From Pedobacter sp. (GTDB taxonomy: Bacteria; Desulfobacterota; Desulfuromonadia; Desulfuromonadales; Syntrophotaleaceae): 64,000 nt of DNA. The translations under genes were made by a program, and so were the position numbers. Numbering within the stretch: the first letter of the stretch is position 1; the number at the start of each line of letters is the position of its first letter. The DNA lies in contig JBFWJC010000001.1 of the NCBI GenBank assembly GCA_050253415.1, forward strand, positions 1,256,679 to 1,320,678, read 5' to 3'. The notes under the pieces are model-generated. The model was not told the origin of the DNA and did not search any database. It saw nothing but the letters and a program-made list of their open reading frames with translations. Positions 2,591 through 39,108 of this stretch are shown piece after piece.

Positions 2591-2705
2591 AATCGATAGC
2601 CTCCCACATTAAGGGTTTGCTTTTTAAGGGCTTTCTCTTATGAAGCTTACCAGATGCGGGCAAACAAGCATTGGCAGGTTCTGACCGGTTGAAAGCAAAC
2701 CGAAA

Positions 2706-2737: not shown

Positions 2738-2764
2738 CGTTAATTGGGGGGATTTTGTAGCTGC

Positions 2765-3364
2765 TCAGGTGGGTTGCGAGTCGGTTTTTTCCTGCAGGGC
2801 CTTTTCCAGGGTTTCCAGGGAGTCGAAGCCCCATTGTCCGGCAAGATAGCGATAGGTTGCTTCGGAAAGGCTCGATCCTGACTGTTGCAGGGCTATCATA
2901 TCGCTGTGGAGTAGTTGCAATGTCTTTTCCGAGTACGTTTCAAGTTCGCCGCGCAGGTAGGTTTCAAAAGAAGTCAGGCCGGGGGCGTCTTCTTGCCTGC
3001 TCAAGGGGCGCCCGCCACGCATCAGGTATGGGAAACTGGCAATGAACTGTTTTTGTCCGGCCAGGGCCAGATCAACAATGGCGTCGATCAGCGGACTGAA
3101 GTTTTCACAAGGTAACAGGTTATCCATGCGGGCATACTTGATGGCCAGCAGGTTGCGATCCGTAGCCTTGGCCCGTTGCAGGTCGATGAGGTAGCTTTCC
3201 AGGGCTGGGGCGGACCAGGCAGCAAACTGGGCTTTCCGGTGCAGTTTAAAACTCTCGGGGTCCTCCTGGCAACGGTAACGGTGGGTGGTTGGAACGGACA
3301 GGAACATGACCAACTCCAGTTCCAAGATTTGTTCAGTGATGAGATTTCGGGTTTCCATGGGCAT
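2765..3364 (-). CDS. DUF4125-like protein
   Basis: CQEDPESF...RKAQF..WS, RNLLAIKYARM, GRPL and TSFETYLRGELETYS are characteristic of DUF4125 as I recall it. Confidence 0.75.
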   Translation of the reverse strand: MPMETRNLITEQILELELVMFLSVPTTHRYRCQEDPESFKLHRKAQFAAWSAPALESYLIDLQRAKATDRNLLAIKYARMDNLLPCENFSPLIDAIVDLALAGQKQFIASFPYLMRGGRPLSRQEDAPGLTSFETYLRGELETYSEKTLQLLHSDMIALQQSGSSLSEATYRYLAGQWGFDSLETLEKALQEKTDSQPT

Positions 3365-3376
3365 CCCTCCAGGTCG

Positions 3377-4303: not shown

Positions 4304-4317
4304 AACGAATCCTTTGC

Positions 4318-4983
4318 TTATCCTTTGATAAGCGCGATGTTCTTAACGGTGTGGCGGGCTTTGGCGGTATTGTCGGTCTGCTCGTACAGATCCCTGGCCC
4401 GTTCAAAATGGGCAAGCCCTGCCTTCTTGTCACCGATCATGGCATGGATATAGCCGATGTTGGCATGCTGATCGGCCACCTTGTCGAGGGCTCCGGCTTT
4501 TAGGAAAAGTGTTTGGGCCTGCTGGTAGTAGTCCAGAGCCAGGGTATATTCGTGTTTATCCCGGCAGACGGAACCCAGGTTGCCCAGTTGTTCGGCGACC
4601 TTCTCCGGTTGGCCGCAACGATCAAATGCATGCATGGCGTTGTTAAAGGCTGCGCTGGCTTCGTCATAGCGTTGCATGCGTGTTAGCAGCAATCCTATAT
4701 TATTCTGGGATGAAGCCATTCCTGCCGTGTCGCCCGCACTGGAAAAGATGGAATGAACGCTCTGGTAGGTTGCCAGGGCTTTATCCGGTTGCCCGGAGGC
4801 GCAGTATATGTCGGCCACGATCATCCGTTGCGTTGCCTCATTGGCGACATCCCCGGTTTCTGCATAGAGCCTGGCTGATTCTTTAAAAGCTTCCAATGCT
4901 GCATCGTAAGAAGCTGTTTTCAGGTGTTTGAGGCCATCTCGGGCTAAGATGTCCGCCATCTTCGCAGTCGGTTCGTTTGCCAT
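4318..4983 (-). CDS. Tetratricopeptide repeat protein
   Basis: Repeated helical motifs (NNIGLL, GNLGSV, ANIGYI). AGGAG RBS. Confidence 0.85.
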   Translation of the reverse strand: MANEPTAKMADILARDGLKHLKTASYDAALEAFKESARLYAETGDVANEATQRMIVADIYCASGQPDKALATYQSVHSIFSSAGDTAGMASSQNNIGLLLTRMQRYDEASAAFNNAMHAFDRCGQPEKVAEQLGNLGSVCRDKHEYTLALDYYQQAQTLFLKAGALDKVADQHANIGYIHAMIGDKKAGLAHFERARDLYEQTDNTAKARHTVKNIALIKG

Positions 4984-5088
4984 GGGGGCTCCTGTTCAGG
5001 CGGTTCAGCCATGTGGTAATCATAGTTTGCGGGGAGCTGGGTCTGGACCAGGCCTTTACGTATAATGCCGTAGACGCCATCTAATCTC

Positions 5089-5126
5089 AATACAAAACGA
5101 ACATGATCCGTAACAAGATGAACATA
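5089..5126. promoter_or_regulatory. Candidate DeoR-type operator (tandem AACA-type repeats with core AAACGAACAT)
   Basis: ATACAAAACGAACAT followed by AACAAGATGAACAT. Shares the AAACGAACAT core with the cutC and permease promoters. Confidence 0.55.
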
Positions 5127-5296
5127 AAAGATCAGTCTTTGTGGTAGGAGTGTGAAAAAAGGGGGGAAACAATTTGCGCCGCAGAATGGTTTTATAATAA
5201 ATTCAAACAGACACTTGTTTTCACCTCTCCAACATGCAAGGAAATATTCTTGAGGGTCGGTTCTGTCCTGCTTGCATTTTATGATAAAGGGGCATC

Positions 5297-6203
5297 ATGG
5301 ATCAGATGACTTCGGGCTATGAAAATCTTTTGGAAAACCTTTTTGAGGGGCTTTATTTTGTTGATGCGGATCGTACGATCATTCGATGGAACAAAGCCGC
5401 TGAGAAACTGACGGGCTTCACATCCGCGGAGATGCTCGGAAAGCACTGCTCGGACAACCTGCTGAACCACGTCGATGAAAATGGTCGCCAGCTTTGCATT
5501 GGGCACTGCCCCCTGGTTAGGGTTATGGACGAGGGTCTCCCGCGGGAGCAGGATGTTTTTCTTCACCATAAGAATGGTCATCGCCTTCCGATCCGAGTGC
5601 GTGCCCATCCGTTATGCGACAGTGGCGGAACGGTGGTCGGAGCCGCTGAGCTGTTCACTGACTTGAGCGAAAGCTCCGGTGTCATGCAGCAGATGGAAGA
5701 TTTTAAGCGACAGGCTTTGACGGACAGCCTGACCGGTTTGCCGAACCGGGCCTGTCTCGAGGTTGAGTTGGAACGTTGCCTGGATGAATACAAGCGTTAC
5801 GGTTGGAATATAGGTCTGTTGTTCCTGGATGTTGATCATTTCAAGGCCGTCAACGATACTTTCGGGCACGATCGTGGCGACGATGTCCTGCGTCTTGTCG
5901 CCACGACTCTTGCGCATAATTGCCGTGCATCCGATATCGTCGGTCGCTGGGGGGGGCGAGGAATTCGTCGGATTGGTGCGCAATGCAACCCCTTTGAATC
6001 TGCTGCATATCGCCGAACGGAACAGGATGCTTGTGGAGCAGTCTTTTATCATGGTTGATGGGCGGCCCTTGGGCGTGACCATTTCCCTTGGTGCTGTACT
6101 GGCCCGGCCTGGCGAATCGGCGGAAAGTCTTGTGCGGCGCGCCGATCAGCTTATGTTTGAAAGTAAAAACAAGGGGCGAAATTGCGTCTCGTCCGATGTT
6201 TGA
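5297..6203 (+). pseudogene. PAS-GGDEF diguanylate cyclase with a +1 frameshift in a G8 tract at the GGEEF motif
   Basis: ORF 5297-6058 reads PAS and GGDEF up to GRWGG. The EEF...ADQLMFESKNKGRN half continues in another frame (5829-6203). G run at 5949-5956 is 8 nt; 7 nt restores RWGGEEF. Confidence 0.85.
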
Positions 6204-6721
6204 TGTTTTGTGTCTGATTTTCAGGGTCGCTGGTTAGCGGGCCTGTAGTCCTGTCCTGTTCATCTCCCACTGTTTGAAATTCAGTTGGCGTATTTTTTGT
6301 TTCACCTTCCTGTCATCCCTTCCCGAGTACTGCCTGCCTTTTTACCGCCTGTTGCACGATTTTGAACCAAACGACAAGTTTTCTCTGATGCCCTACGCTG
6401 GTTTGATGTTCACCATGATTCCCTTCGATTGCAGATCTCCTTTTGGCAGCCGCCGGCTTTTTCTGAAAGAAATTTTGTGACCCGTACGTCGATAGATCCA
6501 GGTTTTATCGCTCTATTTGTGATTGTTTGTAAAGTGGGTGATCGTGTGTGAGACCTTGAGGTGTGCGATGTGGAATGTTTGTGTATTGTCCTTATGTCTC
6601 CGGTCGTTCCATTAAATCGCCGTAAAAACAATAAGTTGTCAGCGGGTGTTGGCGCAGTGGAAGCATTGCGTGTCGGTTTTTGGTAGGTAGATAATGTTTT
6701 GTTGTGTAATAAAATTTACGC

Positions 6722-6751
6722 TTGACAACAAAAACGAACATCATTTACATT
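6722..6751 (+). promoter_or_regulatory. Sigma70 promoter of cutC with an overlapping operator
   Basis: TTGACA-N18-TACATT. The spacer contains ACAAAAACGAACAT. Confidence 0.75.
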
Positions 6752-6921
6752 CATGTCGAACACAATGGTTCATTGATCCATGGTTGCAAGGTTGATTTAT
6801 CTGAGCCTGCTCGGGATTTGTTGGAGGGGGTAAGCAGATACGTAAGGCTGTTGCATCATCGGATCGGGGACGTTTAGCTCATGCTTGCTAACCTTTTACA
6901 CCCAAATAACGGAGGTTGATC

Positions 6922-9348
6922 ATGGCAGGATCTTGTTGTGGTGGAATTGCGGAAGGTGCCACCCGGAAAAAGTTCGAGCTTCCCGAGCGTATTCAGCGCC
7001 TCAAGGATGCTTATCTGCAAGTTAAACCCAGCATCGCTATCGGTCGGGCTCTGGCTTTTACAGAAGTCACCCGGGAAAACCCCGGTATGCCGAATATTCT
7101 GCGTCGCGCGCTGGCTTTTAAAAAGGCCTGTGAAAACGCTCCGTTGCTGATTCAGGCGGACGAGTTGATTGTTGGCCATCCCTGCGGCAAGCCGCGCGCC
7201 GGTGCTTTCTCTCCGGATATCGCATGGAAATGGGTGCGTGACGAGCTGGATACCATTGGTACCCGTTCGCAGGATCCATTTGTCATCACCGAAGAAGACA
7301 AGCAAGTCATGCGCGACGAGATCTTCCCCTTCTGGGAAGGTAAATCCCTTGATGAAATCTGCGAAACCCAATATCGCGAAGCCGGACTCTGGGAATTTGC
7401 CGCAGAGGCTTTCGTCAGTGACTTGTCCTATCATCAGGTTAATGGCGGTGGCGATACCTGCCCCGGTTTTGACGTGATCCTGTTCACTAAAGGTGTCAAC
7501 GGTATCAAGGCTGAAGCCGAGGCGAACCTTGCCAAGCTGTCCATGGACGTGCCCGACGACATCGATAAAATTTATTTCTACAAAGCGGCCATTCAGACCT
7601 GCGAAGGTATCGTCCTCTACGCCAATCGCCTGTCTGCCTATGCGATGGAGCTGGCAGCCAACGAGTCGGATCCCAAGCGCAAGGCCGAGTTGGAAAATAT
7701 CGCCAAGGTCAACGCTCGCGTACCTGCCAATCCTCCGAGTACTTTCCAGGAAGCCCTGCAGTCGATCTGGACCATCGAGTCGCTGTTTGTTATCGAGGAA
7801 AACCAGACCGGTCTGTCCCTGGGACGTCTTGACCAGTATGTCTATCCCTGCTTTGAGGCCGATATTAAAGCCGGTCGCATCGATGAAAACCAGGCTTTTG
7901 AACTGATGAGCTGTTTCATCATCAAATGCGCTGAAATGATGTGGCTGACCAGTGAACTGGCCGCCAAATATTTCGCCGGCTACCAGCCGTTTATCAACCT
8001 GTGCGTCGGTGGGCAGAAGCGTGAAGGCGGCGACGCCACCAATGACCTGACCTACCTGGTTATGGATGTTGTTCGCAAGCTCGGCGTGTACCAGCCTTCA
8101 CTGGCCTGTCGTATTCATAATCAGTCCCCGCAAAAATACCTGCAGAAGATAGTCGAAGTCGTCAAGGCGGGGCTCGGCTTCCCCGCCTGCCATTTTGACG
8201 ATGCCCACATCAAGATGATGCTTCGTAAAGGCTACGATTTCGAAGATGCCCGTGACTACTGCCTGATGGGCTGCGTCGAGCCTCAAAAGTCGGGTCGCAT
8301 CTACCAGTGGACTTCGACTGGCTACACCCAGTGGCCCGTTGCCATCGAGTTTGTGCTTAATCGTGGTGTCATGAAGTGGCATGGTACCAAGCAGGGTATC
8401 GATACCGGTGCTCTGGACCAGTTTTCCACCTACGAGCAGTTCGATGCCGCCGTCAAAGAGCAGATTGAATACATCTGCAAGATGTCCGCTGTCGGCACCG
8501 TTATCAGCCAGCGGGTTCACCGCGACGTGGCACCCAAGCCTTTGATGTCCATGTTCGTTGAAGGCTGCATGGAGACCGGCAAGGATGTTTCCGCAGGTGG
8601 TGCCGTGCTTAACCACGGCCCTGGTTTGATCTTCTCCGGCCTGGCCACTTACGTGGACTCCATGGCCGCCATCAAGAAGCTTGTGTTTGACGACAAAAAA
8701 TACACTCTGGCCGATTTTCAGAAGGCTCTCGATGCCAACTGGGAAGGTTACGAGCAGATGCGTCAGGATTGCCTTGATGCTCCCAAGTATGGCAACGACG
8801 ATGACTACGCAGACTTGATCGCTTCTGACCTGGTCGAATCGACTGAAAAGATCTGCCGTCAATTCAAGATGCTCTACTCCACCATGAGCCACGGAACCCT
8901 GTCTATCTCCAACAATACTCCCATCGGGGAACTGACCGGCGCGACTGCGGACGGCCGCATGGCCTTTACCCCGCTGTCTGACGGCATCAGTCCTGTGCAG
9001 GGTGCCGACAAGAAGGGGCCCACCGCTATTATCAAGTCGGTCAGCAAGATGAACGCTGAATCGATGAATATCGGCATGGTGCATAACTTCAAACTGATGG
9101 ATGGCCTCCTTGAAACTCCTGAAGGAGAGGCCGGTTTGATTACCTTGCTGCGCACGGCGTCTATTATGGGCAATGGCCAGATGCAGTTCAGCTATGTCGA
9201 CAACGATGTTCTTAAGCAGGCCCAACAAAGCCCTGAGGAATATCGTGATCTGATGATTCGCGTGGCAGGTTACAGCGCCTTCTTTGTCGAGCTCTGCAAG
9301 GAAGTTCAGGATGAAATCATCAGCCGCACCGTGCTGAAAGGTTTTTGA
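6922..9348 (+). CDS. cutC: Choline trimethylamine-lyase (glycyl radical enzyme)
   Basis: Gly-radical motif RVAGYSAFF and Cys loop GCVEP. CutC-specific segments [32 protein letters not shown] and [20 protein letters not shown] before ATG 6922. Confidence 0.93.
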
Positions 9349-9361
9349 GTCTAATCGCATC

Positions 9362-9389
9362 GGGGTGGCCCGGGTTTCCGAGCCACCCC
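9362..9389 (+). terminator. Stem-loop after cutC
   Basis: GGGGTGGCCCGG...CCGAGCCACCCC hairpin with only a weak U-tract. Confidence 0.5.
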
Positions 9390-9632
9390 AGTGTGTTTCA
9401 TATGTGTCTCTGGAATGTTGAAGCGGGCCGAAGGAATTTTTCCATAATAGCATGTTTGATTTTATGTATGTTTCGATGAAATAAGCCTGATTCGCACTCT
9501 GCTATCCCGGATGTGAACCGGTCTTGATCTGGTACAGGGAAAAATTTTGCCAGATGTAAGCCCTAGGAGTCGCCTGCGGAAGTCTCGCGCTGGCGGTACA
9601 AGCAGGACATTACTCGATGGAGGAGCAAGGCA

Positions 9633-11000
9633 ATGACGAAAGTGCGGTTTTTGAAGAAAGTTTGGCTTGGTGTGCTGGCCGCTTGCATGGGTTTGACGGC
9701 GGTGCCAGTCCAAGCGGAAATTTATGGAGTTGACTATCAGGGGTTGCATGCCGGGGTTGGTTTGAGCGCAGCCATGGGCACCTTCCACACCAACAATTCC
9801 AATTTTGGCGCCGGTGGCGTCGTTAATGGCGACAAGGACAACAGCTGGTTTGAGGCGTACATCATGCCCAGCCTGAATCTGTCCTACGACACGGGCAAGT
9901 TCGGCATGTTCTATGGAGAGTTTTCCTACGTAGGCACTCAGACTTTCGGCGGCGTTGACCCCGCAGGCTTTTCCCTGGATGACAACGGCAATGAAAATCC
10001 CGGTGACTGGGAATCCGAACTGTTCTATGCCGGGTGGAAATCCGGGAAATTGATCCCCGGGTTGCCTGAAAATGTCATCGATATCTCCTATGGTGAGCAG
10101 ACCTTTTCAATCGGCGACGGTTTCCTTGTGGCCGATGCCGAGTTCGACGGTGCCAAGGGTTGCTACTGGATCGCTCCCCACAAATCTTTCCGTGAAACCG
10201 CCATTCTCAAGATAAATACCCAACCGGTACGCGCGGATATTTTTTACCTGAAGGCCGATAAAGATTACGCCGATGCCGAACTGTACGGGATTAACGTCGA
10301 GTACATCAAAGAAGGCTGGGGTACTGTCGGTGCCAACTACATGAAAGTTACCAACGCTGACGAGAACAGCGCCTGGTATGCCAACCGCGATGGCATGGAT
10401 ATCTGGTCTGTGCGTTTCCAGGGTACTCCGCTGGCTTCTTTCGGGCTGGAGGAATTGTTCCTGTCCGGTGAGTATGCCGGGGAGAGCGGCGGGGACCGCG
10501 CAAAGGTTGATGCCTATGGCTACTATGTCGAGGCCGGCTGGACCTTTTCCAACCTGCCCTGGACCCCGACTCTCAGCTACCGTTATGCCTTTTTCTCCGG
10601 CGACGATGTTGATACCGATGAATATGAAGGTTTTGACCCTCTGTTCTACGGTTTCCTGCGTGGCTGGGGAACCCACTTCATGGGTGAGGTTACCGGCGAA
10701 TACTACCTGTTCAACAATAATCAGCATGTACAGATGGTGCATCTGAATGTATTGCCCACCGACAAACTGTCCCTCGGAGCTATCTACTACAACTTCACGT
10801 TGGACAAAGCCAGTGCCTGGGGTGTTGACTCGGATGATTTCTCCGATGAAATCAACGTTTACGCCGACTATGCTCTCAACGACAACGTGTGGCTGAGCGG
10901 CGTTTTCGGGTGTGCATTCCCTGGCGAAGGTGCTGAGCAAGCCTTCGGTGACGACCAGGCCATGATGATTGTAGAAGCTTATGTGACCTTTACCTTCTAA
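9633..11000 (+). CDS. Outer-membrane beta-barrel channel (alginate-export-like porin), candidate choline porin
   Basis: Signal peptide ending VQA. Alternating aromatic beta-strands, PTLSYRYAFFSGD, FDPLFYG and a terminal Phe. Confidence 0.8.
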   Translation: MTKVRFLKKVWLGVLAACMGLTAVPVQAEIYGVDYQGLHAGVGLSAAMGTFHTNNSNFGAGGVVNGDKDNSWFEAYIMPSLNLSYDTGKFGMFYGEFSYVGTQTFGGVDPAGFSLDDNGNENPGDWESELFYAGWKSGKLIPGLPENVIDISYGEQTFSIGDGFLVADAEFDGAKGCYWIAPHKSFRETAILKINTQPVRADIFYLKADKDYADAELYGINVEYIKEGWGTVGANYMKVTNADENSAWYANRDGMDIWSVRFQGTPLASFGLEELFLSGEYAGESGGDRAKVDAYGYYVEAGWTFSNLPWTPTLSYRYAFFSGDDVDTDEYEGFDPLFYGFLRGWGTHFMGEVTGEYYLFNNNQHVQMVHLNVLPTDKLSLGAIYYNFTLDKASAWGVDSDDFSDEINVYADYALNDNVWLSGVFGCAFPGEGAEQAFGDDQAMMIVEAYVTFTF

Positions 11001-11011
11001 CACGTTATGTC

Positions 11012-11042
11012 AACGCGGACCCTGGCTTTTGGGGTCCGCGTT
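11012..11042 (+). terminator. Stem-loop after the porin gene
   Basis: AACGCGGACCC...GGGTCCGCGTT. A second hairpin with a T-run follows near 11062-11108. Confidence 0.6.
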
Positions 11043-11171
11043 AAAAAACTTCCTCCCAGGGCTCCCCGTTCAGGCCGATAGGTTTGCGGGGGGCCTTTTT
11101 ACTTTTCTCTGTCCTGGCGGCTTTCTGGGTTGGGGTGAAATGGTTTGCACAATGAACGCGGAGTATTGCAC

Positions 11172-11483
11172 ATGGGAAGAGATGGTTCAGATGATCCCTG
11201 TCGGGGTCGCTATCTGCAGAAGCTTGCACAGAATGATGAGATCCCTGGCATTACCGTTTGTATGGGGAAATCCTGCTATGTGCGCGGAAACCAGCAGAAC
11301 CTGGTGTATATCGAGGGCTTTCTGAAGCAGCGGGGATTGGATGTGCGGGTCGATTTGCGTGGCAAGCGGTGTGGCGAGTCCTGTGAGTCCGGGCCACATA
11401 TTACTATCGGCAATTCGGCGTATAGCGATGTTACTTTGGTGAGACTCAAAGACTTGTTGGTGAAACATTACGCGTGCACGTGA
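11172..11483 (+). CDS. Thioredoxin-like [2Fe-2S] ferredoxin (NuoE-like)
   Basis: CMGKSC...CGESCESGP matches the C-x4-C...C-x3-C-x2-GP pattern. Confidence 0.7.
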   Translation: MGRDGSDDPCRGRYLQKLAQNDEIPGITVCMGKSCYVRGNQQNLVYIEGFLKQRGLDVRVDLRGKRCGESCESGPHITIGNSAYSDVTLVRLKDLLVKHYACT

Positions 11484-11523
11484 TCGGTACAGGCAGCGGC
11501 CAAGCCAGGCATGCACGAATCTT

Positions 11524-12723
11524 TTATCCCCGGCTGGGGAGGAGTGCTTCCTGCAGCATGTCTTCAACTCTGACGTGATTGGTTTCCAGCCAGCGTAGCA
11601 GGCGGACATGATGTTTCAGGTAAAACAGATACTCTTCGTCCGGGCAGTTCCCTGTCTCCAGGTAGTAGGTGTCTACGGAGGCCCATTTGATCAGCGATAG
11701 GCTGGCGGCCGTCAGCATGGGCCTGAATAGCCGGATTTCCGATGGCAAGAGGAGGCCGGGTTTGCTGGAGCGTTCGGCCCGTTCCTGATAAGACTGTAAA
11801 AATAGTGCAGCCTTTTGTAGCCAGAGTTTGCCGTCCATGGGGTCTTCCCAGCAGCTGCAGAAGTAGATGACCGCCAGGGCTACATCAAACATGCGCAGGT
11901 CGAGGCAGGCACGATCAAAGTCGAACACGCCGATGACCCGGTTGAGGTTGTATTTCTGGTTGCCAGGATGGAAATCACCATGGATGGCGATAACGGGCAG
12001 ATCCAAAGCTTCCGCCAGTTGTTCGGATGTCTGCTTGCTGATGCGCAGGATGTCCGCAAGGTTGTCCAAAAAGTATTTATCGAAGCAACTATCCTCGGCC
12101 AACTTGGCGCAACGCTGCAGGTCTGCCGGAAAACGGGACAGGACTTTAAGGATGGGTTGGTGCGGGGAGGGGAGCGACCCGGGATCGAACCCGGCCGTGG
12201 AGCAGTGGAGTTCTGCAAGGATCCTTCCGGAGTAGATGTATTCTTCGTCGCTCAGTCGGTTAGATGTCCAGGAGTATTTGTCTTCTCCGCCGATGAATTC
12301 AAACATGGCGTAATGAAGATCTTTGGCGCCCTGAGTTTCCAGGGATTTCAGTTGAACAAAGTTCTCGCCCCCATTCGTGCGTATGAGTCGCGCAATCATT
12401 TGGCTGCCGCTGGCCACAATGTGGTCTATCAGGGCGTGCTCAAAGTAGATGTGGTCAATAGATGTTTCCGGACGATAGAGGCGCAGAAGATATTTTTTGG
12501 AATGACCGTTCTTTAGCATTGTAACGCTAAAGCTCAGGTTGGTGTAGCCACCGTAAAGTTGAGCGACCTTTTGCACGTTGCCCAGGGTATAGTAATCCCT
12601 CACAACTTGCGTTGCCTGGTCGATCAGCAGGTTGCAGGGCTGCTGTTGTGGCGGCTCTACGAAGTAGGGGAGGCGTCTTGGGGGTTCCCAGTTCCTTCGT
12701 AGTAATGGTCCTCCGCCCGGCAT
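11524..12723 (-). CDS. Phosphotransferase of the APH/choline kinase/type II homoserine kinase superfamily
   Basis: GGYTN loop, IHGDFHPGN catalytic motif and FDFD metal-binding motif. Start overlaps the deoR stop (TAATG). Confidence 0.85.
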   Translation of the reverse strand: MPGGGPLLRRNWEPPRRLPYFVEPPQQQPCNLLIDQATQVVRDYYTLGNVQKVAQLYGGYTNLSFSVTMLKNGHSKKYLLRLYRPETSIDHIYFEHALIDHIVASGSQMIARLIRTNGGENFVQLKSLETQGAKDLHYAMFEFIGGEDKYSWTSNRLSDEEYIYSGRILAELHCSTAGFDPGSLPSPHQPILKVLSRFPADLQRCAKLAEDSCFDKYFLDNLADILRISKQTSEQLAEALDLPVIAIHGDFHPGNQKYNLNRVIGVFDFDRACLDLRMFDVALAVIYFCSCWEDPMDGKLWLQKAALFLQSYQERAERSSKPGLLLPSEIRLFRPMLTAASLSLIKWASVDTYYLETGNCPDEEYLFYLKHHVRLLRWLETNHVRVEDMLQEALLPSRG

Positions 12724-13550
12724 TAATCGGCCACCAGTACTCGAATGCCAAGGGCTTTGAGGTCGTGCAGGTATTCCTCGGGGAGTTTGTGATCGACAAT
12801 CAGTAAATCGACCTTATCGATGGGCGCGACTACAAGGTCGGCCACGCGGCCGAACGAGCTGTGGGTGGCAAGCACGATTATCTGCCCCCTGGTTTGCTGT
12901 ATCATGGCGCGCTCAAGGGCGGCTTCGGTAAAGGAAGGAGTGGTTATGCCGTCGCGGAAGCTGATGCCGTCAGGAATCAAAAAAGCCTTTTTGGGGTGAA
13001 GCTCCTGAATCGTTTCCATGGTCAGCGCTCCTTCCATGGAGTGGGTTTCGGGACGGTACTCGCCGCCAAGAAGGATCAATTCGGCCCTTTTCCCCTTGAT
13101 CTCCTGGATGGCGCCTACATTGTTGGTATAGACACGAACGGGCATGTCCGGATCAAGGTGCCGCAATACATAAAGTGCCGTGGTCCCCGAATGGAGAAAC
13201 AGGGTGTCGTGGGGTTCGATCAGGGAGGCGGCTTTGCGGCCGATCTGATCCTTGATATCGGGCAGTTCCTTAAGTCGGGTTTCGTAAGGCTCCTCGTGGG
13301 TCATACGTTCCTGGCGATAAACCGCACCACCATACGTACGTTCAAGGAGGCCTTGGCGCTCAAGGGTTTCGAGGTCGCGACGAATAGTCATTTCCGACAC
13401 GCCCATCATTTCGCTCAAATCCGTTACTCGAATAGTAAGTCTTTCCCTTAACAGGTCGCGGATTCGCATATGCCGTTCCGCTGGCAGTAACTGGTCGTTA
13501 TGGCTAACCTGTCCATTGGCCTTGGTAGTCTTATTATTGTCTTCAAGCAT
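12723..13550 (-). CDS. DeoR/GlpR family transcriptional regulator
   Basis: HTH VSEMTIRRDLETLE...RTYGGA. Sensor domain with SGTT, TNN and LLGGEYR. Confidence 0.93.
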   Translation of the reverse strand: MLEDNNKTTKANGQVSHNDQLLPAERHMRIRDLLRERLTIRVTDLSEMMGVSEMTIRRDLETLERQGLLERTYGGAVYRQERMTHEEPYETRLKELPDIKDQIGRKAASLIEPHDTLFLHSGTTALYVLRHLDPDMPVRVYTNNVGAIQEIKGKRAELILLGGEYRPETHSMEGALTMETIQELHPKKAFLIPDGISFRDGITTPSFTEAALERAMIQQTRGQIIVLATHSSFGRVADLVVAPIDKVDLLIVDHKLPEEYLHDLKALGIRVLVAD

Positions 13551-13551
13551 C

Positions 13552-13613
13552 GTGTTTGTTCGATCCTTTCGTTTTTTGTTCTTTTATAGCACTTTTGGAA
13601 GCTTTAGGGCAAT
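13552..13613 (-). promoter_or_regulatory. deoR promoter with candidate autoregulatory operator
   Basis: Minus strand TTGCCC-N18-TATAAA, followed by GAACAAAAAACGAAAGGATCGAACA. Confidence 0.55.
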
Positions 13614-13999
13614 GGAAGTTTTTACGATAAGTGTCTGCTAAAATACGTTTTTGATTCCCGGGATTACCGCTTGACCGGCGGTTTTAGGAGTTTTGTGGAG
13701 ATCCTCTTCTCCCTTTGAAGTGCGGAGCCATAGTTGGGGCGGGTTTGTTAGACGATGAGCATTACCATATGAAGAATTATGTTTGCTTGTGAGAAGCTTA
13801 GCGGTGCGGTGCGTGGTATATGCTGTCATCCCGATGTTTGGATTAAAAGGCTTTAGGTGTATTTGAAGATGTTGAAAAAACGTGGTTTTATGATTCGCTG
13901 TCAAGGCTATGAGATAGGGCTTTCCAGGCGATTGCAGGGGTGTGTGCAGATCAGGGCTAGGGTGTTCTAGGATGCTCGATGTTTCTTTTAAAATAACAC

Positions 14000-14029
14000 T
14001 TGACAACATAAACGAACATGACCTAGAGT
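14000..14029 (+). promoter_or_regulatory. Sigma70 promoter/operator of permease operon 1
   Basis: TTGACA-ACATAAACGAACATGACC-TAGAGT. Confidence 0.75.
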
Positions 14030-14556
14030 TTGATTGTTCATGTGGACACTAAAGTTACTTGAGGGCGACGGCTCTCGGGCCTGTTTGTTTACGGATGTTT
14101 GCGTTAGCTTGTTACGCGTTGCATTTGTAATACATAGGTTGCAAAGGGCGTACAGGTGCATGCAACGATCCGTTTGGAGTTTGTTCCAAATCGGGTTTTA
14201 GCAAGTCCTTTTAAGTTGCAGGACTTCGGCACTTACGACGCAATAGGTTGGTTCGATTGTGGTTGCTGTCTGGGTGATGGTCGCCGGACGGGTTTGAGAT
14301 GTGTTTTCGAGGCGATGAATGCCAAGCGGATTGAATGCGAGGTCCTTTGTTTCATGGGGGCTCGTCTGCTGACCCGTGGAGGGCAAATCCTCCAAAGGTG
14401 GGCACTGCCGGCTGCCTCATCGGTCGGTGTTTTGGTAATCCACAAAAGTATTATGCAAATGATTGAGTTGCCCTTTTCTGATTGAAGTGTGCTTTACCAA
14501 TGGCAGTTTTCACTCTAAGGGTAGGACAAAACAACCATTTTATTGGAGACGGCATT

Positions 14557-15588
14557 ATGGCTAACGGGGTGCAATCAGCAAGTATCGCCGGAACACGGGT
14601 TTCGGCACGGCAAGTTTTTGAACAAAAAGAACTGGGGTTTGTCAAGCGAGGCCTGGCAACCGCTCTGGGTTCGGGTATGTTGTGGGGGCTTGACGGTGTC
14701 ATTCTCGGCATAGCGCTGGCGATGGCTCCTTTTACCGCGGGTGCCACGATGTATGCGGCACCACTGGCCGGTTCGGCATTGCATGACGGGTTCGCCGGTC
14801 TGTGGCTGGCTCTTTACAATATCTTTACCGGTCGCTGGAAAGACATCGGCCGTTCCTTGAAAACCTTCCCTGGTTTTATCGTTTGCCTGGGGGCATTGCT
14901 CGGCGGCCCGATCGGCATGGGTGCCTATCTGCTTGGTATTAACTTTGCCGGCGCTGCTTATGCCATGGGGATTTCCGCCGGCTATCCGGTCGTTGGCGCC
15001 ATTATGGCCCGTCTGATTCTCAAAGAAAAAATCAGCCCTCGTGTCTGGGCCGGCATTCTTATCTGTGTGGCCGGTGCAGTCATTCTTGGCTATGTTCCGC
15101 CTGAGGGTGGCTCTATGCCGCACTTCTACCTCGGTATCGGTTGTTCCTTGCTGGCTGCATTTGGCTGGGGTACGGAAGGTGTTCTGGCTACCTTCGGTAT
15201 GGACATGGTAGACCCGGCGGTCGCCATTAATATTCGCGAAGCCACTTCCTGTGTTGTTTCCTTGCTGGCAGTCCTTCCGTTTGTTGCCGGACTGGCTGTT
15301 TTCGGTCAGGCGCTGATTACGCCTAATGTTGTGTGGATTATCGCTCTTGCAGGTTTGGCCGGTGGTTTCTCCTACCTGCTCTGGTACAAGGCTTTCAGCA
15401 TGTGCGGTTGCAGTCGCTGCATGGCCCTGAACATCACCTACGCTATCTGGGGTCTGGTGTTCTCCTATTTCCTGACAGACGTTGCGATTACCACCAACCT
15501 GGTCATCGGCGCCATCGTCATCACCATTGGCGCTATCATGGTCGTTGGCAATCCCAAAGAAATGATCAACCTGCGGGCGGAGGTTTAA
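14557..15588 (+). CDS. DMT/EamA permease, LicB-like (candidate choline importer), copy 1
   Basis: About ten hydrophobic segments in two EamA repeats. Motifs LHD, GGPIGM, LKEKI, GWGTEGV and ALNITY. GGAG RBS before ATG 14557. Confidence 0.85.
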   Translation: MANGVQSASIAGTRVSARQVFEQKELGFVKRGLATALGSGMLWGLDGVILGIALAMAPFTAGATMYAAPLAGSALHDGFAGLWLALYNIFTGRWKDIGRSLKTFPGFIVCLGALLGGPIGMGAYLLGINFAGAAYAMGISAGYPVVGAIMARLILKEKISPRVWAGILICVAGAVILGYVPPEGGSMPHFYLGIGCSLLAAFGWGTEGVLATFGMDMVDPAVAINIREATSCVVSLLAVLPFVAGLAVFGQALITPNVVWIIALAGLAGGFSYLLWYKAFSMCGCSRCMALNITYAIWGLVFSYFLTDVAITTNLVIGAIVITIGAIMVVGNPKEMINLRAEV

Positions 15589-15589
15589 A

Positions 15590-15874
15590 ATGGCAGCTGT
15601 ACTTCCAATGCGTTTCCGGATCCTTCATTACTTCTCCACTGTGAAGGAAGCTTCGACAAAAGAACTGATGAACGGCCTGCGTTCCGAATACGGCAGCGAA
15701 GGGCAGTTCAACGAAAATGTCATCAACGAACATCTCATGTCCATGCGGGCAGGAGGACTGATCGAAACCAACGATATCGAATTGGACCAGAGCAATAACC
15801 TGGTTGTCAATTATTCGATCACCGAATTCGGGCAGGGGCGTCTCAAGTATCTGCCTAAATCCTGGAAGATCTAA
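15590..15874 (+). CDS. Small winged-helix-like protein, partner of the permease (copy 1)
   Basis: Starts 1 nt after the permease stop, with a GGAGG RBS. Ends in a YSITEFG-type wing motif. Paralogue at 37102-37383. Confidence 0.8.
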   Translation: MAAVLPMRFRILHYFSTVKEASTKELMNGLRSEYGSEGQFNENVINEHLMSMRAGGLIETNDIELDQSNNLVVNYSITEFGQGRLKYLPKSWKI

Positions 15875-15887
15875 ACGTAAGCAGCAG

Positions 15888-15930
15888 CTGAAAAATCGCC
15901 GTCCTAATGATCGGGGCGGCGATTTTTCAG
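15888..15930 (+). terminator. Intrinsic terminator
   Basis: CTGAAAAATCGCCGTCC...GGGGCGGCGATTTTTCAG. Confidence 0.75.
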
Positions 15931-15992
15931 AGTAATTGGTGAATGGTGATTGATTTTAAATGATTTTGACCCATCACCAGTCACCAGTTACT
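15931..15992. repeat. Inverted heptamer-repeat hairpin
   Basis: AGTAATTGGTGAATGGTGAT pairs with ATCACCAGTCACCAGTTACT and shows 7-nt periodicity. Confidence 0.65.
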
Positions 15993-16190
15993 GGGAGTCT
16001 GTCGGACTATCCATGAGCCGGCTGCAAATTCGTTTGTTTGGCCCATATTTCAGGTCCTTTTTGGCCCATAGTTACAACTATGAACCTTCAAACGACCTAA
16101 AATCTGTTCTCAAACATCCAAATTTTCGCTTCGCCCCTTATAGTCCGACAGGCTCCTAGTCACTCCGTTTCACTGTCGAGAGGTAACACC

Positions 16191-17147
16191 ATGAGTGAAC
16201 AAGCAACGATAAAAGGCGTGGTTTTCGATATCCAGAAGTATTCCATGCACGATGGTCCCGGCGTGAGAACGCTGGTCTTCCTTAAGGGATGTCCTCTGCG
16301 CTGTAAATGGTGTTCCAACCCTGAAAGTATTTCCTCCGCATTTCAAGTAATGTGTCTGGCCGACCAGTGTGTTTCCTGCGGTCGGTGTATCGATGTCTGT
16401 CCTTCCGGGGTTCACAAAATGGTAGCCGTCAGCAATGGTCAACCGCAGCACCAGGTCGACCGTACCGCAACCTGCATCGGTTGCGGTGTCTGCGCGAAAA
16501 GTTGCCCAGCCAAGGCGTTGCGTATTGCGGGCAAGGAAATGACGGTGGACGAAGTGGTCAGCGTCATTATGGAAGATCAGTTTTTTTATTTCACATCCGG
16601 CGGGGGGGTAACCATCGGCGGTGGTGAACCGACTTTTCAGCCGGCCTTCGCCGGTGCCATACTACGTCAAGCTCGTCTCAATGGCGTGCATACCGCCATG
16701 GAAACCTGTGGCCAGTCAACGTGGGAGATCTATCAGGAGCTGGCACCTTACACCGATCTGTTTCTTTATGATCTCAAGCATATTGATCCTGATAGGCACA
16801 AGGCCAATACCGGTGTCAGCAATGAACGGATTTTGGACAACCTCGCCCGCCTGCTCGAACTCGGGGCCAATGTGCTGGTAAGGATCCCGCTGATCGCAGG
16901 AGTGAACGATGACGTCGATTCACTGTCCCGGGCTTTGTCCTGGCTTGAGAAGACCGCGAACAATGCCTCCAATCTCAAAGGGGTCGAGGTCTTGCCTTAT
17001 CACCGCTTGGGGGAAAGCAAATACCATCAGCTCAATGAGGAATATCCCATGGGCGCCATGGCCGGGCATACGGACGATCAGTTGAAAGAGGTTGAAAAAA
17101 TTCTTTTGCAATTCAATCTGCCGGCGCGTATCGTTAAGCACGGCTGA
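16191..17147 (+). CDS. cutD: Choline TMA-lyase activating enzyme (glycyl-radical activase, radical SAM)
   Basis: HDGPGVRT and CPLRCKWC.SNPE, with an inserted ferredoxin domain (two CxxCxxCxxxCP), GGGEP and LPYH. Lies near cutC. Confidence 0.88.
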   Translation: MSEQATIKGVVFDIQKYSMHDGPGVRTLVFLKGCPLRCKWCSNPESISSAFQVMCLADQCVSCGRCIDVCPSGVHKMVAVSNGQPQHQVDRTATCIGCGVCAKSCPAKALRIAGKEMTVDEVVSVIMEDQFFYFTSGGGVTIGGGEPTFQPAFAGAILRQARLNGVHTAMETCGQSTWEIYQELAPYTDLFLYDLKHIDPDRHKANTGVSNERILDNLARLLELGANVLVRIPLIAGVNDDVDSLSRALSWLEKTANNASNLKGVEVLPYHRLGESKYHQLNEEYPMGAMAGHTDDQLKEVEKILLQFNLPARIVKHG

Positions 17148-17610
17148 TTGGCATCGGTCTTGCTCTTTAACAGCGTGTGCGTTTTTTATACACGGAGGTG
17201 GCCTTGTTCTTCCTCCGCCTTTAGCGCATTGGCGTCAGCTTTATATCAGTGAATTGTTGCTGACTCCCTGGTCTGCACGTAAAAATCCAGAACCTTGAAA
17301 ATTCAATGCATTCGGGGCGGGGCTTATGCCTGCCGCTTGGCACGTTTGCGCCTGACAGGAATGACTTTTAACGGAGTCTTTCCTTTGTGCCGGTCTGCAA
17401 GCCTGAATGATGCGGCACGTTGTTCTATCTATTTTTAATAATTTTGGCTAGATGTTGCTGATGGATAGTGATATGTTTTTCAGCACGACTGCCTTATTTT
17501 TAGAAGCACCTGTAGATAAATTTTGTTGGTTTTTAAATACCTTTAATCATGCTCGGAGTACGGGGCTCTTCAGCCGCAATTTTTTTCGGGCTTTTGCATG
17601 AGGTACCATT

Positions 17611-18036
17611 TTGGACAAGATCGATTGGACGCTCTGGTTACAGGTGGGCAATTTTCTGTTGTTGATCGTGATCCTGCAGCGGTTGCTGTATCGGCCGTTA
17701 CTGGCGATTCTTGATCAGCGTCAGGTCCGTCAGGATAACGCTGTGCAGCGCAGCCGGGATCTGGAGGCGCAGATCGCACAGCAGCAAGACGCTTTTGACG
17801 CACAACTGTCGCAGGCCAAGCTGCAGGCGCAGCAGGCGCGCAGCGCGGCGTTGGAGCAGGCACAAAAACAACAAGCCTTGCTGATCGGCGAAGCGCACGA
17901 TCAGGCTATGGCTACCCTGGAACAGGTCCGCCGCGAGGTGGCCGGGCAGCTTGCCGTCGAAGCCGGGCTGCTACAAAGCTATGCCGCGCGCCTGGGCGAT
18001 GATGTGGCTGAACGACTGTTGGGGAGGCCGCTGTGA
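17611..18036 (+). CDS. ATP synthase Fo subunit b'
   Basis: N-terminal TM helix (Q..NFLLL...LLYRPLL) followed by a coiled coil. TTG start. Confidence 0.85.
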   Translation: MDKIDWTLWLQVGNFLLLIVILQRLLYRPLLAILDQRQVRQDNAVQRSRDLEAQIAQQQDAFDAQLSQAKLQAQQARSAALEQAQKQQALLIGEAHDQAMATLEQVRREVAGQLAVEAGLLQSYAARLGDDVAERLLGRPL

Positions 18037-37101: not shown

Positions 37102-37383
37102 TTATTTCCAGGAATTGGGCAAATATTTCAGCCGACCCCGACCGAAGTCGGTGATGGTGAAGGTTTCCAGTAACTTGCCGTGCTCGTCAAGATTGACGTC
37201 GGTTTCCTCGATGAGGCCAGAAGCCCGCATGGAGGTCAGATGGTTTTCAAAGCTTTTTACCGAAAATTGACCCTCGTTGCCGTATTCGGCGCGCAGATCT
37301 TTCATCAGATCGTGTACGTTGGCCTCGGTTTTTGTAGCCATGAGGTGCAAAAGGCGAAACCGCAAAGGAAGTTTGATAGCCAT
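37102..37383 (-). CDS. Small winged-helix-like protein, partner of the permease (copy 2)
   Basis: MAIKLPLRFRLLH...EYGNEGQF...SMRASGLIE...GRLKYLPNSWK. Clear paralogue of 15590-15874. Confidence 0.8.
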   Translation of the reverse strand: MAIKLPLRFRLLHLMATKTEANVHDLMKDLRAEYGNEGQFSVKSFENHLTSMRASGLIEETDVNLDEHGKLLETFTITDFGRGRLKYLPNSWK

Positions 37384-37387
37384 ATTC

Positions 37388-38428
37388 TTATGCTCCCTGA
37401 CGCAGGTTAAGAAGTTCTTTAGGATTACATACAACCAGGATACCACCGACGGTAATGATCAGCCCGCCGACCACCAGGTTGGTCGTCAGTTGCAGGTCGG
37501 TCATAAAGTAGCCGAACACGATGCCCCAGATGACGTAGGTGATATTAAGTGCCATGGCGCGGCCAACACCAGTCATGTTGAGGGATTTATACCAGGCCTT
37601 GTAGGAGATGCCGCCGATGACGCCGGCACAGGCAAGAATCCACAGGCTGTTGAAGGTACCGAGGGCCTGGCCAAGCAGGGCCCAGCCAGCTACAAAGGGC
37701 AGTACGCCGACGATCGAAACGATGCAGGATACCGATTGGCGAATGCTGATAGCGATGTCGGGATCAACCATGTCCATGCCGAAGGTGGAGAGAACGCCTT
37801 CGATGCCCCAGCCGAAGCAGGCCAGCAATGCGCAGCCGATGCCGAGGTAGAAATGAGGCATGGTGCCGCCTTCCGGGGGAGTCCAGCCAACGATCAGTGC
37901 GCCGATAACCGACAGAATGATGCCGCCCCAGACCAGCGGGGTGATTTTTTCTTTGAGAAATACGGCAGCCAGGATGGTGCCGACTACCGGGAACATGGCA
38001 GTGATGGACAGAGCGTAGGAGGCGCCGGCAAACTCGATGCCCAGTAGATAGCCACCCATGGCGATAGGACCACCGAAAACAGCGGCGAGGCATACCAGAA
38101 CACCCGGCCATGTTTTCAATGTGCGGAAAATTTCGCTGCCCCGACCCGAGAGGATATTGGAAAGAGTCAGGAAAATACCGGCAAAGCCGTCGTGCATGGC
38201 GGCACCGACCAGGGGGCCGGTAAAAATTGTTGCGCCGCCAGTAAAGGGAGCCATCGCAAACGCGATACCCATGACAATGCCGGCAAAACCCCAGGAGAGC
38301 CCGCCGAACGCCCCCCACAGAAGGCCCGCTTTGGCGTGGCTCATTTTACGTCTGTTACTCAGATCTCTTGCGATAGCCTTCGACGAGGAAGCGCTACCAA
38401 CCGCTTGTGCTGCGACTCCATTAGCCAT
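37388..38428 (-). CDS. DMT/EamA permease, LicB-like, copy 2
   Basis: Paralogue of 14557-15588, sharing MANGV, MAPFT, HDGFAG, PPEGG.MPHFYLGIGC and FGMDMVDP. Confidence 0.87.
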   Translation of the reverse strand: MANGVAAQAVGSASSSKAIARDLSNRRKMSHAKAGLLWGAFGGLSWGFAGIVMGIAFAMAPFTGGATIFTGPLVGAAMHDGFAGIFLTLSNILSGRGSEIFRTLKTWPGVLVCLAAVFGGPIAMGGYLLGIEFAGASYALSITAMFPVVGTILAAVFLKEKITPLVWGGIILSVIGALIVGWTPPEGGTMPHFYLGIGCALLACFGWGIEGVLSTFGMDMVDPDIAISIRQSVSCIVSIVGVLPFVAGWALLGQALGTFNSLWILACAGVIGGISYKAWYKSLNMTGVGRAMALNITYVIWGIVFGYFMTDLQLTTNLVVGGLIITVGGILVVCNPKELLNLRQGA

Positions 38429-38825: not shown

Positions 38826-38855
38826 ACGATAAGGTATGTTCGTTTGTGTTGTCAA
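38826..38855 (-). promoter_or_regulatory. Sigma70 promoter/operator of permease operon 2
   Basis: Minus strand TTGACA-ACACAAACGAACATACCT-TATCGT. Confidence 0.75.
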
Positions 38856-39108
38856 GTGAATATTTATGTATGGATATGATAGATGTTTGAGGGTTTTTTA
38901 GCCGAATCAAGAAGGTTAGCCTTGAGCTGGAAACCATTTTCGAAGTAGTATATTTTTTCAAGTATTTGAAAATACAATTAAAATACGTATTTTTTTTAAT
39001 TTGCCTGTGAGGATGTTTTACGGTTGTGGGCTTGTGTGTATGGTGACCTTGTGTGTTTGCTGGTGATTGAATATGTTGGTTTTGCTTGGATGCTTGTCGG
39101 TTTCAGGA

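Follow-up and report, generated by a model that had tools for sequence, protein, structure and literature searches.

In sediments and guts, microbes make trimethylamine mainly through the anaerobic cleavage of choline that CutC catalyses. Gene clusters for this pathway (cut clusters) have reportedly been described in Desulfovibrio, Clostridia and Enterobacteria, by Craciun and Balskus in 2012 and Martinez-del Campo in 2015, and to our knowledge little is known about how cutC gets switched on. Regulators of the DeoR family offer one general precedent. As a rule their effectors are phosphorylated intermediates, such as deoxyribose-5-phosphate, glycerol-3-phosphate, fructose-1-phosphate and tagatose-6-phosphate. 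In the GlpR/GlpK pair and other DeoR circuits the inducer is the product of a kinase, and that kinase carries out the first catabolic step.

Phosphorylation of choline itself is documented in Eubacterium limosum: MthK, whose gene neighbours those of MthB and an EamA transporter, has proven choline kinase activity and also acts as a DMAE-P:choline phosphotransferase (PMC12155760, J Biol Chem 2025). In the published gene order the kinase gene is divergent from mthB-eamA-mthA-mthC; MthK phosphotransfer is ADP-dependent and reversible, and the TCDB matches of the mth-cluster EamA include the choline carrier LicB (PMC12155760). In LicA, the kinase paired with LicB, Tyr197 is described as part of the quaternary-amine pocket (PMC4364537).

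The window, the whole 64,000-nt stretch of DNA analysed here, comes from a 4.1-Mb genome (100% complete) that we also covered with whole-genome profile searches. Its cut cluster is framed by two well-defined catabolic genes. The choline trimethylamine-lyase gene cutC (6916..9348, + strand; conserved ATG at 6922) encodes PFL-like and Gly_radical domains and scores 1580 bits against the TIGR04394 equivalog (cut-off 1050). The gene for the CutC-activating radical SAM enzyme, cutD (16191..17147, +), scores 398.8 bits against TIGR04395 (cut-off 360). CutC is thus a bona fide choline trimethylamine-lyase, and an earlier sequence-only reading of the window was right that the enzyme uses free choline and that catabolism needs no kinase.

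Several further genes lie in and around this frame. Downstream of cutC is an outer-membrane protein gene of the Alginate_exp family, a porin (9633..11000, +; PF13372, 50.6 bits), which also follows cutC in G070, G094, G116 and G164, the relatives in which that position is covered. A small thioredoxin-like [2Fe-2S] ferredoxin (11145..11483, +; PF01257, 28.7 bits) is a variable member, present among the relatives only in the window and G116. Also between cutC and cutD, two genes run on the opposite strand: one for a 399-residue, MthK-like small-molecule kinase of the APH fold (11524..12723, −), which we assign to an Arg-271 subtype, and one for a 275-residue DeoR-family repressor (12723..13550, −). 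They are followed by an EamA/DMT transporter gene (14557..15588, +; PF00892; conserved ATG at 14557, in an ORF that opens at 14482) and a gene for a weakly PadR-like protein of 94 residues (15590..15874, +). A second EamA gene, identified by its Pfam match, and a second 94-aa-type gene (37388-38428 and 37102-37446, together 37102..38428, −) share 58% and 55% identity, respectively, with their counterparts near cutC. No Rfam family was found in 5000-18000 at E values up to 0.1.

The association of these genes is conserved. Searching 401 genomes of the class, we found the same cluster in all five kinase-bearing relatives, and it also occurs in two metagenome loci, in one of which (L103, rearranged) the kinase gene sits directly upstream of cutC. 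The kinase of the regulator-kinase pair thus does co-occur with cutC across genomes. The overlap of the deoR stop and kinase start that had been read from the letters is likewise real: CATTA at 12721..12725 on the + strand is TAATG on the − strand, with the DeoR stop TAA (12725-12723) and the kinase ATG (12723-12721) sharing one base. The junction is TAATG also in G070 and G092 and TAAATG in G094, and it widens to 17 nt in G116 and 12 nt in G164. Across the eight cutC-linked loci the kinase stays joined to the regulator in seven; in L103 it does not adjoin DeoR. Bacterial operons often contain one-base overlaps, so this one is unremarkable taken alone. Moreover, the side-by-side placing of DeoR and kinase genes goes back to MttB-type operons, in which the kinase has a catabolic role, and the coupling itself is therefore no evidence of a signalling role.

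A tie between DeoR and the cutC promoter comes from a 21-nt box, CTTGACAACAWAAACGAACAT, which was found by comparing genomes; looking for repeats inside the DeoR-EamA spacer by itself gave no useful lead. The 4.1-Mb genome contains exactly three copies of the box, which precede cutC, EamA and the second EamA paralogue, and a reversed control contains none. The first copy (CTTGACAACAAAAACGAACAT; 6721..6741, +), a candidate DeoR operator, covers the −35 element and spacer of the cutC promoter. The second belongs to the EamA promoter with box CTTGACAACATAAACGAACAT (13999..14029, +; box at 13999-14019), which comprises TTGACA, an 18-nt spacer and TAGAGT and is conserved in four genomes of the genus. 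The third (CTTGACAACACAAACGAACAT; 38836..38856, −) emerged from the genome-wide box search and precedes the second EamA and 94-aa-type genes. Upstream of cutC the box is conserved in G070, G094 and G164, and unrelated loci gave one match in 1.71 Mb. Its CGAACAT segment resembles what we take to be the GlpR half-site.

The regulator has the architecture of its family, with an HTH_DeoR domain (residues 26-80; PF08220, 61.2 bits) and a C-terminal DeoRC sensor domain (residues 99-254; PF00455, 135.3 bits). The box also travels with DeoR orthologues in other genomes, standing at the DeoR promoters of the G541 and G685 loci, and because of this DeoR is very probably the repressor of the cut regulon, as judged by comparative sequence analysis. 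A TGTTCG element (13557..13562, +) adjoins the DeoR start codon within a genus-conserved block and may be an autoregulatory site; the same hexamer occurs in tandem after the −10 element of DeoR promoters in Actinomycetota loci.

The 94-aa protein was rejected as an alternative binder of the box: the four EamA-94aa loci that have no DeoR lack the box, and two loci with no 94-aa gene carry it at their DeoR promoters. The 94-aa protein follows EamA in every locus that holds its gene, and eight of the 11 members of its family match PadR at E values up to 0.1, under the Pfam cut-off. Locus L194 gives a weak hint (hhalign probability 9%) of a fusion between the 94-aa domain and an EamA protein, from which nothing is concluded here.

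The kinase retains the HGDxxxxN and DFD motifs noted at first reading. Its catalytic loop HGDFHPGN (residues 248-255; 11959..11982, −), invariant in two family alignments, contains the Brenner phosphotransferase motif HxDxxxxN, and alignment places the metal-binding motif FDFD (residues 267-270; 11914..11925, −) immediately before Arg271. The initial description of the protein as having a choline-kinase fold holds in the broad sense only. It scores 80.7 bits against Pfam APH (PF01636; gathering threshold 23.2) but 24.7 bits against Choline_kinase (PF01633), below the cut-off of 29. Its AF2 model has a pLDDT of 88, and its best fold matches are an N-acetylhexosamine kinase and a type II homoserine kinase, with choline kinases appearing from rank 21. 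A homoserine kinase assignment was rejected on score (NF003558, 56.4 bits against an equivalog cut-off of 271; TIGR00938, 39.6 against 255.9).

What links the protein to MthK is homology to kinases at the MthK position of phosphocholine-demethylation clusters. We found the published mth gene order in genomes that belong to the same family as the Acetobacterium malicum record, and the window kinase is 29% identical over 365 residues (E 4e-49) to the kinase that occupies the mthK place in it. Among distant kinase loci, an MttB-family gene lies within 6 kb in 25 of 49 and a corrinoid protein in 16 of 49, and loci of Sporomusa, Desulfobacterium and Acetobacterium have EamA genes of 53–60% identity after the kinase. 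The MthK kinase family now extends beyond methyltransferase clusters, and the analysis points to larger phosphocholine-demethylation clusters with two kinases, an MttB gene, DAO-GCV_T enzymes and an ETF.

Combining these observations, we tentatively propose, at somewhat less than an even bet, that DeoR, the kinase, EamA and the 94-aa protein form a cassette for choline uptake, activation and regulation in which the kinase makes phosphocholine as a signal for DeoR. The cassette would serve cobalamin-dependent phosphocholine demethylation (Mth) in other phyla, and here it would have been built into a cutC/cutD cluster without a microcompartment. Sequence and comparison suggest that DeoR, binding at boxes that overlap the −35 element and spacer, would repress three promoters: that of cutC and the porin, that of EamA and the 94-aa gene and possibly cutD, and that of the second EamA-94aa pair. 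Choline would enter via EamA, which is probably a choline importer. The kinase, translated from the mRNA that also encodes DeoR, would then phosphorylate a small share of it, as homology to MthK suggests, and the phosphocholine formed would be the intracellular signal that releases DeoR.

Absences from the genome bear on this proposal. The whole-genome searches returned no match to MttB (PF06253), no MthB, corrinoid or pterin methyltransferase gene, no LicD, and no DAO-GCV_T or PF01633 gene. Phosphocholine therefore has no known user within the four families covered (MttB, LicD, DAO-GCV_T and PF01633), which is the ground for proposing that it may act as a signal. The sensor would have evolved where phosphocholine was a true intermediate, and the kinase would have been retained as a signal maker once CutC replaced the methyltransferase. 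A more far-reaching version, possible though in our view rather doubtful, has a catabolic kinase exapted into a dedicated signal maker, with phosphocholine serving purely as a second messenger in the control of trimethylamine production. The reversible, ADP-dependent kinase would keep the signal in step with intracellular choline, and the old first enzyme would have been retained only so that the old repressor could read choline as phosphocholine.

The idea that the kinase makes the signal sensed by DeoR, already raised in the sequence-only reading, thus gains an evolutionary rationale and partial support while remaining a proposal. The MthK-like family of the kinase, the lack of a phosphocholine consumer in the four families and the operator tying DeoR to the cutC promoter all fit it. 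Against it stand Arg271 in place of the LicA-type pocket Tyr, the fast evolution of the kinase, the frameshifts in two of its copies, and genome G541. This genome (99% complete) has a 51%-identical DeoR and an identical box, but neither an MthK-like nor a PF01633 kinase; the sensor domain of its DeoR differs at only two otherwise invariant columns.

As G541 indicates, a DeoR of this type need not have such a kinase to function, which is what one would expect if a choline kinase traps or buffers imported choline as phosphocholine while DeoR senses something else, for example choline itself. Variants of this explanation, which we consider unlikely, have choline trapped behind a facilitator-type EamA, held as a reserve, or phosphorylated as a brake on acetaldehyde bursts in the absence of microcompartments; the whole genome indeed contains no microcompartment (BMC) shell gene (PF00936). 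The pairing of EamA with a kinase also mirrors that of LicB with LicA, in keeping with the LicB match of the mth transporter, and the reversibility of ADP-dependent MthK phosphotransfer means that stored phosphocholine could be freed again (PMC12155760). However, no phosphatase or other phosphocholine release route was identified, and a buffering role leaves the joining of kinase and regulator in seven of the eight loci unexplained. Moreover, an enzyme that carries flux should change more slowly than this kinase does.

Arg271 raises a second alternative, that this kinase subtype has changed its substrate and acts on something other than choline, for example a different amino alcohol, a by-product of the pathway or some protein, in which case its role in the cut cluster would be unknown or different. 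In an hhalign alignment the residue is paired with the Tyr of IDWEY, a choline-kinase motif (probability 88%), and the kinase therefore lacks the LicA-type aromatic (Tyr or Phe) three positions after the motif Asp. Arg is common to all eight cutC-linked kinases whose gene context was covered, whereas each of the 47 compared relatives outside cutC clusters has Trp at this position; Arg is likewise invariant in all 22 closest database relatives, with Trp in 96 others. The clade-specific changes fall beside the metal-binding Asp (W271R in five of five copies; K273 to Cys, Asn or Thr), the stem branch is long, and the fold neighbours range over sugar, homoserine, aminopropanol, antibiotic and protein kinases. 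We nevertheless hold a change of substrate to be unlikely as well. The other family-conserved aromatics (W152, W292, W347, Y287 and Y312) are retained, and an aromatic at 271 is not obligatory, since the kinase in the published mthK gene order has Met there. Moreover, the kinase is constantly accompanied by a choline lyase and a choline-type transporter.

No gene of the cluster evolves faster than that of the kinase, which has the highest dN and a rate 5–8 times that of its neighbours; within the genus its identity is 59–63%, against 91–94% for DeoR. Its dN/dS is 0.15–0.19, or 0.15–0.3 when distances from genus to order are included, far below 1, and the kinase is under purifying selection. 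In the five cutC-linked copies, 29 of 36 family-conserved columns are intact, all catalytic ones included. Frameshifts occur in the kinases of G092 (inside the HGDFHPGN codons) and L102 and may be assembly errors; the L102 frameshift points to sequencing error because its EamA gene is frameshifted too. An internal TAA flagged in the G164 kinase was set aside, as a tblastn alignment covering residues 18-392 is free of stops. That the kinase is a slowly decaying leftover of an imported cassette, carried along with DeoR, would suit its high dN and the two frameshifts but is very improbable given the low dN/dS, the intact catalytic residues in five of five full copies, the place the kinase still holds beside cutC after rearrangement in L103, and the sequencing error indicated for L102.

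With the phosphocholine-signal proposal as the preferred reading, the cluster offers a concrete candidate repressor for cutC with a precise 21-bp predicted operator and a testable ligand. It is also a natural experiment in which the regulatory module of one choline pathway appears to be re-used for another. Compared with the described cut clusters, the cutC and cutD orthologues here score above their equivalog cut-offs, but shell genes are lacking and the two genes are split by those for the porin, kinase, DeoR, EamA and 94-aa protein. With the MthK/MthB/MthC/MthA system of E. limosum (PMC12155760) the locus shares an EamA transporter within the cluster, a choline substrate context and an APH-type kinase of one family, the last judged from the homologue at the mthK place of the published order. 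In contrast to that system, the genome has no corrinoid or pterin methyltransferase gene and no MttB-superfamily partner (MthB). The catabolic enzyme is instead a glycyl radical lyase acting on free choline, the DeoR gene overlaps the kinase, and residue 271 is Arg. The LicB/LicA pair of Streptococcus pneumoniae and Haemophilus likewise joins a DMT/EamA-type choline carrier to a kinase with a Brenner motif and a DxD/E motif, whereas here LicD is absent, the Pfam choline-kinase score is sub-threshold and the pocket residue three positions after the motif Asp is Arg, not Tyr. Finally, GlpR/GlpK has in common with this locus a DeoR-type repressor whose inducer, by analogy, would be expected to be a phosphorylated first intermediate. 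In contrast to that circuit, the catabolic enzyme here ignores the product of the kinase, which would make the kinase a dedicated maker of the signal.

A DeoR-type repressor and an APH-fold kinase are encoded as an overlapping pair inside a choline trimethylamine-lyase cluster. The repressor gene (12723-13550, minus strand; 275 aa, with HTH_DeoR and DeoRC domains in Pfam) ends in TAA at 12725-12723, and the kinase gene (11524-12723, minus strand; 399 aa) starts with ATG at 12723-12721, the resulting TAATG having one base common to stop and start. The coordinates thus bear out the overlap claimed in the sequence-only reading, and its kinase motifs are likewise present (HGDFHPGN at residues 248-255, FDFD at 267-270). 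One-base overlaps are frequent in operons, so this one is by itself little informative. The cluster begins with cutC (6916-9348; TIGR04394, 1580 bits), followed by genes for an Alginate_exp-type outer-membrane protein and a small [2Fe-2S] ferredoxin-like protein. Kinase and DeoR come next, on the strand opposite to the remaining cluster genes, and an EamA transporter gene (conserved start at 14557), a 94-aa gene (15590-15874) and cutD (TIGR04395, 398.8 bits) read away from DeoR. No microcompartment shell gene (PF00936) occurs anywhere in the window genome, which is 100% complete in 18 contigs; the cluster (6916-17147) has no microcompartment, and the outer-membrane protein gene follows cutC instead. 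A 123-aa reading frame at 13638-14009 (minus strand) has no Pfam match, lies in a stretch not conserved within the genus and is probably not a gene.

The kinase matches the APH phosphotransferase family (Pfam, 80.7 bits), and its score against the choline-kinase model (24.7 bits) falls below the cut-off of 29. A homoserine kinase, raised earlier as the refuting alternative, is disfavoured, the type II models scoring far under their cut-offs (56 against 271). A search of 5.8 billion proteins returned 126 relatives; the named ones are annotated "phosphotransferase" or "homoserine kinase type II", and a Syntrophotalea MAG contributes one that is 60% identical. The AlphaFold model, a confident one (pLDDT 88, residues 1-28 disordered), resembles the wider APH/ELK small-molecule kinases, with N-acetylhexosamine kinase, homoserine kinase 2ppq, YtaA, APH(9) and aminopropanol kinase as neighbours and choline kinases only from rank 21 on. 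The predicted fold alone does not name a substrate.

Scanning one genome per species yielded 49 loci with kinases 28-38% identical to ours. In none of them does CutC lie within 10 kb; in 25, an MttB-family methyltransferase gene is located within 6 kb, frequently just downstream. Other neighbours are a corrinoid protein (16 of 49), a DeoR of the same subfamily (12 by ORF clustering, 14 by tblastn), a second kinase of the PF01633 type (8), a DAO-GCV_T enzyme (7) and, immediately 3' of the kinase, an EamA gene plus 94-aa gene (4). This is the context reported in a 2025 J Biol Chem article (PMC12155760) for MthK and MthB of the Eubacterium limosum Mth pathway. There MthK, a "phosphotransferase", is a choline kinase (Km 2.8 uM) with a second, DMAE-phosphate:choline phosphotransferase activity; it makes phosphocholine, on which the MttB-family enzyme MthB really acts; the mth cluster includes an EamA transporter; and in Clostridia, Negativicutes and deltaproteobacteria homologues of MthK and of MthB are encoded close together. 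We also found a second, more distant kinase group in five genomes from the family to which the Acetobacterium malicum record belongs. In the two inspected (G819 and G821) the kinase gene is divergent from MttB-EamA-pterin methyltransferase-corrinoid protein, as in the published order, and the window kinase is 29% identical to the kinase at this position (E 4e-49). Separately, an MtmB-like protein (about 477 aa; PF05369, the monomethylamine methyltransferase family, 240 bits) adjoins the kinase in six loci (L022, 11088-12521, and Actinomycetota loci L003, L004, L006, L009 and L014).

CutC uses free choline, as the earlier reading held and PMC12155760 supports, and the complete window genome contains no MttB-family, LicD or DAO-GCV_T enzyme and no PF01633 kinase; across these four families, phosphocholine has no known use here. 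Elsewhere, larger clusters combine DeoR, two DAO-GCV_T genes, ETF alpha and beta, a PF01633 choline kinase, an MttB-family gene and an MthK-like kinase (L100 of genome G685, 2520-14717; also L013, L039, L041, L042 and L048), which hints at a fuller anaerobic route taking phosphocholine through further demethylation steps.

Within the class, 6 of 401 genomes have the kinase. Besides the window's genome these are three others of the genus, a further member of the family and a further member of the order. To the extent of their contigs, the five relatives all share the cut cluster; DeoR and kinase meet as TAATG in three genomes and as TAAATG in one, and are 12 or 17 nt apart in the remaining two. 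Metagenome locus L102 keeps the window's gene order, whereas L103 is rearranged, with a lone kinase directly upstream of cutC (1276 bits) and DeoR elsewhere in the locus. A quick maximum-likelihood tree groups the five cutC-linked kinases in a single clade (SH-aLRT 100) nested among MttB-linked kinases. A 3-kb metagenome contig (L114, 3-2818) places a kinase with Trp at position 271 after a glycyl radical enzyme fragment that is borderline for CutC (660 bits over 490 of 789 model positions).

Seven of the 36 columns conserved at 95% or more among 47 non-cutC kinases (excluding the truncated L047 and the long-branched L045 and L035) differ in the cutC-linked copies; the other 29 are kept in all five, as is every catalytic residue. 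Two changes stand out: all five copies have R in place of W271, and K273 has become C, N or T. In a profile alignment, residue 271 faces the Tyr of the choline-kinase motif IDWEY; in LicA, according to PMC4364537, this Tyr lines the quaternary-amine pocket. Arg271 is found in all 22 closest database relatives and Trp in 96 others, and every Arg-type kinase with visible context (8 of 8) is cutC-linked. The kinase occupying the published mthK gene order has Met here, so an aromatic residue at 271 is not essential in the family.

Aligned spacers of related genomes revealed two near-identical promoter blocks, 5' of cutC and 5' of EamA. They share a 21-mer, CTTGACAACAWAAACGAACAT, with exactly three sites in the 4.1-Mb genome and none for the reversed pattern: before cutC (6721-6741), before EamA (13999-14019; the promoter scan gives TTGACA, 18 nt, TAGAGT) and before a second EamA/94-aa pair (38836-38856, minus strand), whose products are 58% and 55% identical to the first. 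This second pair with its box (37102-38856, minus strand) lies 23 kb from the cut cluster and has a leader of about 400 nt. Allowing up to four mismatches, the box recurs at the matching promoters of relatives and of L103, and at DeoR promoters of two genomes of the same phylum, G541 (no mismatches) and G685 (two), whose DeoR is 48-51% identical and which carry no nearby 94-aa gene. None of the four EamA-94aa loci without DeoR has the box, and 1.71 Mb of unrelated loci gave a single match. Actinomycetota DeoR-kinase-MttB loci carry a tandem TGTTCGacttTGTTCG immediately after the -10 of the DeoR promoter, and TGTTCG lies beside the window's DeoR start codon (13557-13562). This distribution and the TGTTCG elements assign the box to the window DeoR's subfamily. 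Judged from these sites, cutC and both transporter operons are very probably under DeoR control. The box core CGAACAT presumably resembles a GlpR half-site.

The EamA leader (14030-14556, about 520 nt from promoter to start codon) contains three elements that are conserved: a terminator-like hairpin (14058-14079), a final stretch of about 100 nt with strong conservation and a box-like GGACAAAACAACCAT (about 14524-14538). It has no Rfam match and might represent a further operator or an attenuator. The 94-aa gene is weakly PadR-like, below the Pfam cut-off, and its homologues always directly follow an EamA gene, with or without DeoR (L016, L041, L044, L049, L088-L092 and L103). In L194 (9742-11034), an EamA-like protein may carry a fused C-terminal 94-aa-like segment, a weakly supported match.

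The DeoR-kinase adjacency is old. Six Actinomycetota loci have same-strand pairs with gaps of about 44-66 nt and three Chloroflexota loci have divergent pairs, in every case inside methyltransferase clusters; the coupling is thus an inherited one and did not arise for CutC. New in the window lineage is the loss of the phosphocholine-using catabolic partner, with the kinase retained under selection beside a lyase that has no need of it. Most simply, DeoR would have evolved as a sensor of the Mth pathway's first intermediate, and once the cassette joined cutC/cutD, the kinase would have had to stay for choline sensing to continue. The earlier proposal of a signal-making kinase thereby gains an evolutionary reason.

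Three observations stand against the signal-making kinase. The first is the Arg271 signature. The second is the kinase's fast evolution: its within-genus identity is 59-63% against 91-95% for DeoR, CutC and EamA, with dN about 0.28 against 0.02-0.05 and dN/dS 0.15-0.19 against 0.02-0.05 for other cluster genes (dS saturated), making it the most relaxed gene of the cluster, yet clearly under selection. Finally, G541 (99% complete) has, next to a DAO-GCV_T gene, a 51% identical DeoR, differing at just two otherwise invariant sensor-domain columns, and an exact copy of the box, but neither an MthK-like nor a PF01633 kinase. In that locus (L099, 7104-10408) DeoR heads an operon with one DAO-GCV_T gene, and an aldehyde:ferredoxin oxidoreductase gene is divergent from it.

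Alternatively, the kinase may trap or buffer choline, or the Arg-type enzyme may have changed substrate. Least likely is a slowly decaying leftover, against which stand the selection on the kinase and its position directly upstream of cutC in L103. A one-base deletion within the HGDFHPGN codons of the G092 kinase (L090, about 9850-9865) and frameshifts in both kinase and EamA of L102 (about 3150-3175 and 520) could be assembly errors or real decay.

In the literature collection searched, no title or abstract beginning among the matches listed concerned cutC clusters that include DeoR or a kinase; papers matching phosphocholine, choline and a DeoR repressor were unrelated to the subject, and PMC12155760 was the sole match for MthK, MthB and phosphocholine. 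The ISME J 2018 Pelobacter/cutC paper (PMC6331629) lacks the terms "kinase", "regulator", "DeoR", "transporter" and "gene cluster". Among known systems, those that come closest are the Mth system, LicB/LicA, circuits of the DeoR type such as GlpR/GlpK, and described cut clusters. Unlike the Mth system, the window genome has no MthB, and among the four families searched the kinase's product has no consumer; the cut cluster has no microcompartment genes, and its catabolic enzyme is a glycyl radical lyase.
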